DNA of 33,157 bases from an uncultured archaeon. Its GTDB lineage: Archaea > Asgardarchaeota > Thorarchaeia > Thorarchaeales > Thorarchaeaceae. Below the pieces are notes generated by a model. It saw nothing but the letters and a program-made list of their open reading frames with translations, was not told the DNA's origin and searched no databases. Below, piece after piece: positions 22,565 through 29,804 of this stretch (position 1 is the stretch's first letter; each line of letters opens with the position of its first letter). Position numbers and translations under genes: made by a program. The stretch covers positions 1 through 33,157 of the forward strand of contig CAZSWP010000040.1 in the NCBI GenBank assembly GCA_964610875.1. The letters are read 5' to 3'.

Positions 22565-25500
22565 GTGCATCATGTGGGTCGATTGAAGGAGATTCTGAAA
22601 AAAGCAGGAAAAGGACTTGTTGTTACTGCGGCAAGCGTCATAGCTGGTGCAACATTGGGTCCTCTTGCTGCAGGTGCTGTTGGCTCATTCTTGTCAAAGG
22701 CAATGGGTGACATTGGAGTCAAGGTCAGTCAAGAAATAATCGATGAAGCCATAGAGGGTAAGATAATGGATGCTCCTCACAAATTGATGGAGCTCGGTCG
22801 CCCACAGGATATCGAAGAAGTTTCTGGAGATATTGCTGCAAAGACGGGATTACCTCAAGAGGAGATAAAGGCGGCACTACAGTACAGTCTTCGAGAACTT
22901 CAGAATTCGCTAGGCGACCTCACAATGGAGTTGCGTGGAAACACGATGCTTCTTGGAGAGGTATTCAAGTTAGCAAATGAATCGGATGCTAAGATTGATG
23001 TTGTTTTGGCTCAATCCCAAGAGACCCAAGATGCAATTGGTGAAGTCCTCAGACGTCTTGATGCAATGGAACGAGGATTAGACATCTCCTATCGAAAGTT
23101 CATCGGCAGTTACTCTGACCCGAAGAAACTGACAGTTGATAGACTTCGGGTGATAAGTAAACTTCAACGTCAGAGGACAATCGTGGCATCTGGCTTTGGT
23201 GTGCGATACGATTCAAATCTCTATGTTCCCCGTCAAGAAGAGGAATCTGTATTTAACAGGTTCATGGGCGACACTGGGATGTCAGATAGGAATATCTTCC
23301 TGGTGCTTGGAAATGCCGGTCTAGGAAAAACATGGTTCATGGCAAAGATGTCTGATTTGAGTCTCGAGATTGGTTCTCCAACCTTCTTTGTACCGCTAAG
23401 TCATGGTATCAAAGCATTGACCTCTGTGTTCCAAGTTGAAACGATTCCGGCATTAGTTGATCTGATTGACCCGCTACTTGATCAAGCTGGAGAACATGCT
23501 TTCATATTTCTCGATGGACTTGATGAGATGGACCCACGAAACATCCGGCATGTTCTAGGTTCTCTAGCTTCTGCTAGAAGTAACTCTGTATCATTCGTCT
23601 TATCATGTCGAGCTGCAGACTGGGCTACTAATCGCTCCATTGTTCAGGGTGCAAATGATCTGAAGTATTACATTTACGAGAACAAGGATGCAGAAGCAAA
23701 CGCACGAGCATTGCGAATCAATACCGCGGTATCTGTACTAATGTCGGAGTTTACTGATTCTGAGCTCCGTGCTGCAATGAAGAGGTATGGTCTTCCAGAG
23801 GAAGTTCCTTTTGATTTACTGCCATTACTTCATCGACCGTACATACTTCGACTTTCAACTGAATGGTATAATCAAGTAGGGTCATTGCCTTCTCCTTCCT
23901 CTCCGGAGTTTCTCGATTTGTTTGCAGGAGGACCAGAATATGCTGACTCAGTCTTCAGACGTTTGGGGATTCTTACGGAACGTGACTCACTATATGCTAC
24001 TGTAGAAAAGCTAATCGAAGCACAGCGTGATTCCCTTCCATTAGGACAATTACCTCTTGATCCTGAGTCTACTACATTCAATACTCTTGTTTCATCAGGT
24101 ATATTACAAATCACTCTTGGTAGAATAGGAACTACAATCTCATTGACACCAGAGTTCACTGTTCCATTGTTCTCCCTAACAATACTTAGACATCAGACTG
24201 ACCCTCCCAAGCTAAAAAAGTTACTCGATGTTGTAAAGGGTTACATGCCAGAACAAGCACCAGTTATTCAGAGGATTGTTGAGGAAATTGTTACACCTTC
24301 TGGCACAAGAATTGAACGTGTTGAACCAGTGATTCCTGAACCTGTAGTTGATGTACCTCATACCCCTACTCCAACCAGAACTGATCCTCCAATAAAGAAG
24401 GGCCTCTTACAGCCTGGAGATAAAGGTGCAACACTGCTTTCAGGTAGAGGTGCTAGTGTGGCTGTTCCTCCTAAAGAGGAACCGGAGCATGTCAGAGAGA
24501 AATCAGGGAAATATCCAGATGATGTAAAACATCTGATCTTTCTATTCAATGATAGAGAGATTCAAGTAAAACGAGCTGCTATGATGGCGCTAGGCATGGC
24601 TGCTTCACGTTTATCTGAATCCGATGCTAGAGTTGAACTTATAGAAGGTTTTCTAGAAGATGGTGATACTGATGTTCGTGTTGGAGCGACTCTTGGTATG
24701 TCAATGGTTGCTGCTACTCTGAAAAATGCAGGTGAAAGAATAGACCTCCTGAAGCCCTTGATTGAGGACTGGGAGTGGTCAGTAAGACGTACAGCTGCTT
24801 TCGGTCTTACCCTCATGGCAACCAAATTGAGTGATGAAGCAAAGAGAGATGAAATCATTAAACCTCTTCTTGAGGCTAGAGATGGACAAGTTAGGAGTGG
24901 CGCAGCTGAGGGTCTTGGTTTTGGTGCAATGTCATATCTAACACCAATGGATGCTCATCCTGTTATCCAACCATTATTGAAGGACAATTTCGAGGGTGTG
25001 AGAAAAGCTGCAGCTTTAGGCTTGGGTCTCTTGACTTCCACTCAAGCTGATTGTGATGCAACGGTTGAGCTTTTGACACCTATTACAAAACTCAAAACCG
25101 GGAAAGAACGGATAGGTGCCATAATGGGTCTTTGTCTTATTGGTAGTCGTCTTCCTGATTGTTCTGGAATTGTCAGGACTGTCACTCCCCTTCTTGAAGA
25201 CATGGATTATGAAGTAAGGAGTGCTTCGGCAATAGGACTGGGTCTTGCAGCCAGTGGTTTACCAGATCCATCGAGTATGTCAGATTTATTGAATCCACTA
25301 CTTTCAGATGATGAACCTGAAGTACAATACAGTGCTGCTTTGGGTCTTGGCCTCATAGCCTCAAAATTACCGAATCCCTCTATCTTCCTGAAGTCGTTAA
25401 TTGAGCACGATATTGAGCATGTTAGAAGTGGAGGTGCGATTGCCTTAGGAATTGTAGGAACACGATTTTCTGACCCCTCAGATATGATAGATCTCTTGAA

Positions 25501-27911: not shown

Positions 27912-29804
27912 ATGATGTCGGAACGGATGAAGACGATTGTTACATGTTTGTTATTATGTGGGTCCATTTTATTGATTGACTCGTCAAATATACAATCTGA
28001 AAATTACAACTCGATTTCATTACCAGATGAACGAGGAACATTCACACTTTCCAGCACACCCATATTTGCGGACTATTTCAATAATAGCGGAACAGGATAT
28101 GATGATGAATTATGGAACTATGAGGCATTTGGCAGTGGAAGCATTAGTTGGGTTGATGGTGAAGAAATAGTGATGAGTGTTGAACGACACTCGTTCAGAA
28201 CACTCTCAAGTAAGATGACATTTAGCCAAGGGCACATTGCAAACATTCGCATGCATATTGATGAAGATGAGGCTGCGGTGAATATTGGATGGACAAATTC
28301 AAACAATTCAACTTCATGGAACTATCTCTTTACAGGTGACCGAGTACATCTACAGGCAGCTATGAGTAATCTAGTCGTTGATTCAGAGAAAACTGGCTTA
28401 AAACATAGAAAACTCATCCCTGACACCAATGCGTTCGATACTCACGAGTATTCCTTGATCTGGGCAGATGAATTTGTTCTAGTCTATGTTGATGGCATAC
28501 AAAAGGCAGTAATTGGGGACAATATACCATCAGGAACACTTCATTTCAAAATCAGTATCACAGAATTTCGAAACCAGTCAACTGATGGATGGGTGAATAT
28601 CGATTCGGTAGTTATCTCTGAACTGGACTCTATTCAAGAATTACCTATTCCAATAATTGACTTGAATTCACCTGGAAATAAAACCAGAAATCTTGGAGGA
28701 ACCCAGATTGACTTATTTACAATAGGATCCGATAACGAGATAATCTATTCTTGGGACAATGGTCCTATTGTTACTGATAGTAGTCCATTTGATATTCGAC
28801 TACCTGAATCTGATGGACAACATATTCTTCGTGTAAGTACAAATGATGCTTTCGGACTTGAAAGAAGAACCACTGTCAAATACGTTTTTGAAAGTATGAT
28901 GACAAAGCCACATCTGGTCGCACCACTTCTTCAGACCATACCAACGATTGATGGTGTCATTCAACCTAATGAATACTCACCATGTACAGCGTTGAAATTT
29001 GAACTACAGAGAGTTGCAGGGTCTCCTAGATTGCTTGAAGTCTTTATTGGTCATGATGGACAATTCATCTTTATAGCTTACAATTCAACAATACCCTCTG
29101 GTCATGATTCACGCGGGGCAGTCATATTGAGTAATTCGCCTGATTCTCACTATCATGGCCAAAACGATACTCCTATTCTTTCAGCATTATTTGTTCAAGG
29201 TTCTCCTGATGCTTGGGAAGGATATGATGAACTGGTTTACATTTATGAGAACGAGGCTGGAAGTACTGGTTGGAATAAGGTAGAACCAATGCCAACCGGA
29301 GCTCTTGCAAAATCAAGCATATCATTGTCAGGTGTCTATTACGAATTCAGGATACCATTTGAACAATTTGATGTTGTAATAGGTGATACACTCAATATTG
29401 CGTTAATGCTATTTCCTACAGGTATGAGCGTGGATGCCGTGTATTTTCCAATAGTGGAACCATGGAGAAATGCATCAATGCTTGCTACCTTGGAATTAGC
29501 ACCTTACATGTCGTCTTTTTCAGTATTGATGATATTCATTATTATTGGAGGAATTGTATCCATTGTTTCTATTCTACATTATCAAGAGAGAAGAAAGAGA
29601 GGTGCAATTATAGATACTGCGACTCCAATAGATGGACGTATCAATGACATCATTCAATCATATGAATCAATTCCTATTGAGAGACTATCAAAAATGGTTG
29701 GTTTAACTGAGGAAGAAGCTATCTCTAGGATTGAAAGAATGATTTCAGAAGGTCTGATCAATGCCTCATTTGACGAGCAAAAAGGGATCATAATGCGTAG
29801 ATGA
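27912..29804 (+). CDS. Single-pass membrane protein with the same architecture and a clear PCI-like cytoplasmic winged helix; paralog 2
   Basis: 'FADYF...HEYSLIWADEFVLVYVDG', 'PTIDGVIQPNEY...YEFRIPFEQF', TM ~29515-29577, tail IIQSYESIPIERLSKMVGLTEEEAISRIERMISEGLINASFDEQKGII. Collinear with paralog 1, 20-bp gap. Confidence 0.78.
   Translation: MMSERMKTIVTCLLLCGSILLIDSSNIQSENYNSISLPDERGTFTLSSTPIFADYFNNSGTGYDDELWNYEAFGSGSISWVDGEEIVMSVERHSFRTLSSKMTFSQGHIANIRMHIDEDEAAVNIGWTNSNNSTSWNYLFTGDRVHLQAAMSNLVVDSEKTGLKHRKLIPDTNAFDTHEYSLIWADEFVLVYVDGIQKAVIGDNIPSGTLHFKISITEFRNQSTDGWVNIDSVVISELDSIQELPIPIIDLNSPGNKTRNLGGTQIDLFTIGSDNEIIYSWDNGPIVTDSSPFDIRLPESDGQHILRVSTNDAFGLERRTTVKYVFESMMTKPHLVAPLLQTIPTIDGVIQPNEYSPCTALKFELQRVAGSPRLLEVFIGHDGQFIFIAYNSTIPSGHDSRGAVILSNSPDSHYHGQNDTPILSALFVQGSPDAWEGYDELVYIYENEAGSTGWNKVEPMPTGALAKSSISLSGVYYEFRIPFEQFDVVIGDTLNIALMLFPTGMSVDAVYFPIVEPWRNASMLATLELAPYMSSFSVLMIFIIIGGIVSIVSILHYQERRKRGAIIDTATPIDGRINDIIQSYESIPIERLSKMVGLTEEEAISRIERMISEGLINASFDEQKGIIMRR

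Follow-up and report, generated by a model that had tools for sequence, protein, structure and literature searches.

The window, by which we mean the whole 33,157-nucleotide stretch analysed, is contig C40 (GenBank CAZSWP010000040.1) of a 3.75-Mb Thorarchaeales assembly (GCA_964610875.1; genome label G000), and it carries a STAND NTPase gene, P0001, followed by genes for two receptor-like membrane proteins, RecA and RecB, and by a convergent gene for an orphan protein, P0005 (RecA, RecB and P0005 are labels coined in this analysis). P0001 (22565-25801, plus strand) encodes a stand-alone NACHT-like STAND NTPase of 1078 residues, assigned from its open reading frame (ORF), Pfam, NCBIfam and orthologues at 48-69% identity with variable neighbours. 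RecA (P0002; 25987-27891, plus strand) is assigned by homology to RecB as a type-I membrane protein with a lectin-like ectodomain, a single transmembrane helix and a winged-helix tail; its likely true start is the ATG at 25996, inside the ORF, where a signal peptide begins (MKVFRR...). RecB (P0003; 27912-29804, plus strand) is also a type-I membrane protein, for which the ORF, an AlphaFold2 model and 39 homologues were available. P0005 (29810-31267, minus strand) is predicted to be a cytoplasmic protein of an orphan family of about 400-515 residues, and it converges on RecB with the two stop codons 5 bp apart. A preliminary description of this DNA had reported three adjacent co-directional genes with a 185-bp gap behind the STAND gene, and had proposed that the STAND protein and the two receptors form one signalling module. 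The three ORFs were confirmed at their coordinates and strand, as was the gap (25802-25986; RecA and RecB are 20 bp apart), but orthologues of the STAND and receptor genes proved to be unlinked in relatives, and the module finds no support in this comparison.

The comparison covered 87 Thorarchaeia genomes, which were searched for the STAND gene, the receptors and P0005. The STAND gene was found in 13 of the 87 (genera g1, g5, g9, g10, g11, g13 and g16) and the receptor cassette with P0005 also in 13 (genera g1, g3, g6 and g10), a nearly disjoint pattern, with both present in only two genomes, G000 and G024. In G024 the STAND gene lies on contig C17 and is followed by about 30 kb of other genes, while the cassette lies on C18 behind a fumarase-type lyase gene, so that even if C17 and C18 abut, at least 5 kb and four genes separate the two units. 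No receptor gene was found within flanks of about 6-8 kb around the STAND orthologues of G012, G008, G023, G019, G004 and G024, and no STAND gene at the receptor loci of G024 (C18), G017, CP070658 (a 2.58-Mb record), JAFGAR010000028 and SRR13394437. G082, a single contig, has the cassette without the STAND gene, and G044 (one contig), G019, G004, G008 and G012 (97-98% complete) have the STAND gene without the cassette. The STAND protein itself is well kept, at 63-69% identity over its N-terminal 600 residues. Its downstream genes vary, with uncharacterised proteins, a small GTPase, a VWA protein and a histidine kinase among them; outside a single genus, whose two genomes have one downstream gene in common, no conserved partner gene was found. 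The adjacency of STAND and receptor genes is peculiar to this genome, and the units are separate. It seems fairly probable that their meeting in the window is a chance juxtaposition of two independent genetic units.

The 185-bp gap between them holds a degraded 55-nt copy (25843-25897, plus strand; 84% identity) of STAND nucleotides 24793-24847, which belong to repeat 3 of the protein. The copy stands just past the STAND stop codon and in frame with the gene, and since STAND orthologues stop at the same residue as P0001, it is a duplicate outside the gene and not a lost C-terminus; it is probably a rearrangement scar where the STAND and receptor units meet. Further along the gap, at about 25949-25958 and upstream of the RecA ATG, is an AT-rich TATA-like element, GATATAATAT, which suggests a separate promoter for RecA. 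On the other side, a 742-residue gene (14447-16675, no Pfam match) that is directly beside the STAND gene in G008 and G023 is here about 5.9 kb away from it, with a subtilase, a Big_1 protein and P0004 among the genes between. These intervening genes upstream, and the scar and cassette downstream, indicate that the STAND neighbourhood has been reshuffled on both sides. No RNA run covering 24800-27200 was found, only two microbial-mat DNA runs from one study, whose Logan contigs are at least 99% identical with no joints or loose ends, and at 0.4-1.3 kb are too short to settle contiguity across the junction.

A giant 2109-residue protein (351-6680) and the 742-residue protein are also STAND neighbours in G008, G023 and G019, and relative to those genomes the window has insertion-like segments at 16.7-22.5 kb (S8 subtilase, Big_1, small ORFs and P0004) and at 25.9-31.3 kb (the cassette). 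P0004 (21311-22423, plus strand) had been described as a tandem Lrp-like regulator. Pfam places two winged helix-turn-helix (HTH) domains of AsnC/HTH_24 type in it, at residues 5-51 and about 195-235, and detects no ligand domain of RAM/AsnC type; no P0004 orthologue stands beside the STAND gene or the cassette at the other loci examined.

The receptor-P0005 cassette

The conserved unit at this locus is one or two paralogous receptor genes together with P0005, and P0005, a gene that the preliminary description had left aside, is the conserved partner of the receptors. Receptor and P0005 genes abut 3' to 3' in G000, G024, G017, G057, G063, G068, G080, G082, G086, JAFGAR010000028 and SRR13394437 (G082 is probably the same as the CP070658 record and was counted once). 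The pairing is kept at every locus inspected, and wherever the class search placed both genes (G024, G057, G063, G068, G080, G082 and G086), they abut. Six loci were inspected in detail (G024 C18, G017, CP070658, JAFGAR010000028, SRR13394437 and this window), all of them with the receptor gene or genes followed by a convergent P0005, and the other five carry P0005 orthologues at 35-49% identity to that of the window. Divergence runs in parallel in the three cassette genes, and for each of them the closest copy is that of SRR13394437. The flanks of the cassette differ between genomes, and it often lies beside giant FG-GAP/Ig surface proteins. PADLOC found no match for RecA, RecB or P0005.

RecA and RecB are paralogous (23% identity, E 8.6e-25), with no further full-length copy in the genome; a signal peptide, a single transmembrane helix and a C-terminal winged helix are common to both. 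The RecB architecture was read from an AlphaFold2 model built with 41 sequences (mean predicted local distance difference test score, pLDDT, 86.8), and the RecA layout by homology only. The model runs from a signal helix through a jelly roll (residues 45-240; 28044-28631), an Ig-like domain (residues 248-329; 28653-28898), a beta-sandwich (residues 333-531; 28908-29504) and a transmembrane helix (residues 535-564; 29514-29603) to a canonical winged helix, all on the plus strand. The description of the ectodomains as sugar-binding-like finds support at the level of fold. The jelly roll resembles GH16 glucanases (Foldseek E 8.5e-9, target template-modelling (TM) score 0.66-0.78, Z 18-19.7) and, almost equally, the L-type lectins ERGIC-53, VIP36 and Emp47 (Z 17-17.8, with ERGIC-53 at 17.8), and lectin and glucanase ancestry are indistinguishable from fold alone. 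The GH16 catalytic motif ExDx(x)E was absent from P0002, P0003 and 36 of 39 other family members in a motif scan, and in the remaining three relatives it is sporadic and has no conserved position; from this absence we infer a binding role for the jelly roll, and not hydrolysis. The third domain is CBM9-like, matching 1i82_A with Z 18.4 and a root-mean-square deviation (rmsd) of 2.4 over 169 of 189 residues. In the related genomes G004, G010, G015 and G019, giant surface proteins (frames of 1700-4000 residues) contain dozens of tandem repeats that match the Ig-like region of RecB (residues 245-340).

The cytoplasmic tails, which had been called PCI-like winged helices, fall closest to PCI among Pfam families. 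The RecB tail (residues 572-629; 29625-29798, plus strand) is acidic, has the order helix-strand-helix-helix-strand-strand in the model, and scores 34.5-39.7 bits against Pfam PCI (PF01399; cut-off 22), the match spanning model positions 32-80 of 84. PCI is reached at E <= 0.01 by 21 of 22 tails in the family and is the best family for them, compared with at most five of 22 for any DNA-binding HTH family. The RecA tail (residues 566-634; 27682-27888, plus strand) has no Pfam PCI match when searched alone; it aligns with the RecB tails through a common SYDxIxIERLSxM core, and a profile of the tails recovers it at E 2e-18. Among solved structures the RecB tail best matches the winged helices of DDRGK1/UFBP1, Rpn6, a PCI-domain protein, COP9 signalosome (CSN) subunit CSN4 and eIF3c, with weak E values of 0.005-0.6. 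The helical-repeat (TPR-like) subdomain of PCI proteins is missing in the RecB model, in which only a seven-residue linker joins the transmembrane helix to the winged helix. Within the receptor proteins, the tail belongs to the better conserved regions.

Other membrane proteins of this genome also carry a cytoplasmic winged helix. Three are encoded on contigs C46 (L048:1324-2664), C64 (L049:1297-1878) and C20 (L050:1297-1839), all on the minus strand; in all three a CxxC...CxxC zinc ribbon comes after the winged helix, and for two of the three PCI is the best, sub-threshold, Pfam match. One of them combines a signal peptide with an acidic repeat ectodomain, and the other two are small proteins with two transmembrane helices. 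In G024, about 1 kb from the cassette on C18, a 100-residue protein (L023:8159-8461, plus strand) consists only of a transmembrane segment and a PCI-like winged helix (PCI E 9e-4). It seems that membrane-tethered winged helices of the receptor-tail type recur as a module in this organism.

P0005 was modelled with a pLDDT of 78.8 and a predicted TM score of 0.71. Its residues 96-203 (30659-30982, minus strand) form a TBP-like domain that resembles the platform of adaptin and COPI appendages. In a search of 48,161 chain representatives the top five matches of this domain were the appendages of beta2-, alpha- and AP-4 beta-adaptin and of gamma-COP (Z 10.3-12.3, rmsd 2.3-2.8, about 100 residues), the next unrelated match reaching a Z of at most 8.5. 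Appendages were also the top nine among the Foldseek candidates that were re-scored, which gives a Z range over both searches of 9.9-12.3. Residues 209-311 are Ig-like, and residues from about 310 to 480 make up a helical Cys/His domain. Residues 10-87, placed where an appendage has its Ig-like sandwich ahead of the platform, are modelled as beta strands with a pLDDT of only 40-68 and are missing in orthologues of 407-417 residues; one of the appendage alignments spans 61-203. Invariant residues in the family are C358, C366, H374, C375, C387, C477 and C480, an RTWRDH block, and an AT-hook-like GRPP motif within a basic stretch (residues 449-452; 29912-29923, minus strand).

P0005 matched no Pfam family at E <= 0.01, a P0005 profile found nothing among solved structures, and Foldseek with the whole model gave no usable match to solved structures (TM <= 0.16). 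An Atlas feature search found no match, and an Atlas shape search only matches with TM <= 0.36, in which the first-listed row was a beta-adaptin-like cluster at 0.33. A word-based search yielded 5 homologues, and an exhaustive profile search of 1.84 billion representatives yielded 12, which form one narrow family save for one weak 821-residue match. With 12 representatives from an exhaustive search, P0005 is a small orphan family. A role as a mobile-element recombinase was considered and rejected, as there is no recombinase family match and the fold is unrelated.

The STAND NTPase P0001

P0001 begins with a Gly/Ala-rich hydrophobic segment and a helical region, continues with the NTPase domain and ends with a repeat array. 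The NTPase domain has a Walker A motif, GNAGLGKT (residues 249-256; 23309-23332), and a NACHT-type Walker B motif, FIFLDGLDE (residues 313-321; 23501-23527). Profile scores for this domain are all under the curated cut-offs (NACHT 16.7 against 26.7, nSTAND_NTPase5 23.9 against 34, NPHP3_N 24.6 against 24.8), models of the antiphage proteins EruA and HyoA also match weakly and under their curated cut-offs, and PADLOC gave no system match for P0001 beyond HEAT repeats.

The array (residues 668-1078; 24566-25798, plus strand) bears out the eleven PC/HEAT-like repeats of the preliminary description. Repeats start at residues 668, 704, 740, 776, 812, 848, 884, 920, 953, 989 and 1025, with a period of 36. 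They match HEAT_2 with 138.5 bits (E 9e-41), and they do not reach the threshold of Pfam PC_rep (PF01851; 13.5 bits against a cut-off of 21, E 0.1). Among solved structures the PC region of Rpn2 is the best natural match (6e-15 to 1e-13 over about 240 contiguous residues) and Rpn1 ranks after it (9e-8 to 1e-4), while the shorter period of designed alphaRep HEAT proteins means that these can be aligned only with gaps. Given the strong HEAT_2 score and Rpn2 as the best natural structure match, "PC/HEAT-like" is a fair description of the array as judged from its profile matches.

The N-terminal segment (residues 17-43; 22613-22693), GLVVTAASVIAGATLGPLAAGAVGSFL, is conserved and might insert into the membrane or act as a glycine zipper. 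Atlas leads linking the P0001 N-terminus to the N-terminal helical domains of NACHT proteins had scores of 0.75-0.81, too weak to use. P0001 probably acts alone as an NLR-like switch, with the repeat domain as its C-terminal sensor.

Interpretation and comparison with known systems

We hold with moderate confidence that the window contains two independent units, a stand-alone STAND NTPase and a portable receptor-P0005 cassette. In the cassette, the non-catalytic lectin-like and CBM9-like ectodomains would bind a glycan, either extracellular or on the cell surface. The tails, with their PCI-type winged helices, would mediate protein-protein contacts, by pairing with each other, by docking P0005 or both, and would not bind DNA. 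P0005, through its appendage-platform-like hub and its C-terminal Cys/His domain with the GRPP motif, might then relay or organise an intracellular response.

Several observations weigh against this reading. Many of the cassette-bearing genomes are 74-90% complete, and the absence of the STAND gene from them is provisional; the adjacency of STAND and receptor genes in this genome could also be put to functional use. Because convergent genes are not co-transcribed, the coupling of receptors and P0005 is read from adjacency and co-inheritance only. In G068 the P0005 orthologue (C90:73805-75232, minus strand) has five in-frame stops (four TGA, one TAA) next to an intact RecB, and is either a pseudogene or the product of poor assembly. 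Finally, P0005 has no sequence match to any adaptin family, and the TBP-like fold is a common one.

Alternatively, RecA and RecB might be structural or adhesive glycan-binding surface proteins with no signalling role, with tails that do no more than oligomerise or anchor them beneath the membrane, and with P0005 linked for another reason, such as regulation of the locus or co-transfer. The frequent position of the cassette beside giant FG-GAP/Ig surface proteins, which have an Ig-like domain in common with RecB, is consistent with this, as are the retention of RecB in G068 despite a broken P0005 and the similar winged helices on other membrane proteins of the genome. We nevertheless regard it as unlikely, since the receptor-P0005 abutment has been kept at 35-49% identity, at no fewer than 11 loci and through changing flanks, and since the tail ranks among the better conserved parts of the receptors.

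A poorer prospect is that the tails are membrane-tethered DNA-binding winged HTH domains, and the receptors one-component transcription regulators that act directly or after proteolytic release, perhaps with the AT-hook-like P0005. Behind PCI, the RecB tail has secondary Pfam matches to AsnC-type HTH (2e-5) and HTH_24, one homologue is labelled "predicted transcriptional regulator" by the Joint Genome Institute (JGI), and the invariant GRPP of P0005 sits in a basic stretch. Against these stand the charge of the tails, which ranges from -8 to +1 (-3 in RecB), with most isoelectric points at 4.3-5.3; this mostly acidic character speaks against DNA contact and in favour of binding between proteins. 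The preference for PCI over every DNA-binding HTH family across the tails, and best structure matches that are protein-binding winged helices (DDRGK1, Rpn6, CSN4, eIF3c), point the same way.

Least likely of all is the single module of STAND, RecA and RecB, with clustered PCI-like tails sensed by the PC-like repeat domain. In its favour, the three genes lie side by side on one strand, the repeats are Rpn2-like and the tails PCI-like, and the hydrophobic N-terminal segment might place P0001 at the membrane. Against it, the linkage holds in one of the two genomes with both genes, their occurrence is otherwise almost disjoint, STAND orthologues are well conserved in genomes that lack receptors, and the gap holds the probable rearrangement scar as well as a TATA-like element. 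With a linkage confined to this genome, the locus gives no ground for pursuing the attractive idea of an NLR-like switch that reads PCI tails and is made of proteasome-regulator parts.

For the cassette within the two-unit reading, a more specific proposal is that RecA, RecB and P0005 are an archaeal receptor-adaptor system, in which lectin-type receptors are coupled through PCI-like tails to an appendage-like cytosolic hub. We give this proposal a low probability, about that of DNA-binding tails. If it were true, the cassette would be a prokaryotic counterpart, in Asgard archaea, of the coupling between cargo receptors and adaptors in eukaryotic membrane trafficking; if the tails and P0005 do not bind, it is another surface lectin family. 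The two intracellular folds, the PCI-type winged helix and the appendage-like domain, both belong to what is regarded as the eukaryote-like repertoire of Asgard archaea, and a small, well-defined and conserved set of genes whose products may bring the two into contact would offer a tractable way to ask what such domains did before eukaryotes.

P0001 is a further member of the prokaryotic NLR-like NTPases with repeat sensors. It has the three-part layout of prokaryotic NACHT/STAND NTPases with HEAT, TPR or WD40 sensors, and their GxxxxGKT and hhhhDGLDE motifs, but it differs from them in family scores below the cut-offs and in a 36-residue Rpn2-like period in place of the PBS-HEAT period of about 31 residues. 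Its high conservation (63-69% in the N-terminal 600 residues) is atypical when compared with fast-evolving immune sensors. With the PC repeats of Rpn2 and Rpn1 in the base of the 19S particle it has in common the period of about 36 residues and helices of the VRxxAAxGLGL type, whereas its repeats are fused to a STAND NTPase and have no proteasome context, and the likeness to Rpn2 and Rpn1 is read from sequence.

Relative to the PCI domains of the 19S lid, the CSN and eIF3, the receptor tails have only the winged-helix subdomain of about 58 residues, without the helical-repeat half. DDRGK1/UFBP1 likewise holds a PCI-like winged helix at the membrane by a single transmembrane helix, but the topology is reversed, the RecB transmembrane helix being N-terminal to the winged helix yet placed after a large ectodomain. 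The jelly roll has the fold of GH16 glucanases without their catalytic motif. Like the L-type lectin cargo receptors ERGIC-53, VIP36 and Emp47, RecB is a type-I membrane protein with an N-terminal ConA-like jelly roll and a short cytoplasmic tail; it differs from them in its added Ig-like and CBM9-like domains and in a tail that is a folded winged helix and not a short sorting motif.

The cassette has parallels in archaea. Asgard archaea are reported to possess adaptin appendage domains (Eme et al. 2023, PMC10307638), and a study of archaeal ESCRT neighbourhoods described membrane proteins ending in a PCI-like winged helix alongside proteins of adaptin-appendage-like type (Makarova et al. 2024, PMC10936438). 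These reports give precedent to the pairing of a PCI-like winged helix with an appendage fold. No ESCRT, Vps4 or kinase genes were found in or near the cassette at the inspected loci. Like the systems of PMC10936438, the cassette pairs a membrane protein bearing a small PCI-like winged helix with an appendage-fold protein, and it differs from them in its lectin-like and CBM9-like ectodomains and in P0005, which has no adaptin sequence match and is represented by 12 clusters. The receptor-P0005 cassette is a portable, Thorarchaeota-restricted and previously uncharacterised variant of a theme already noted in archaea.

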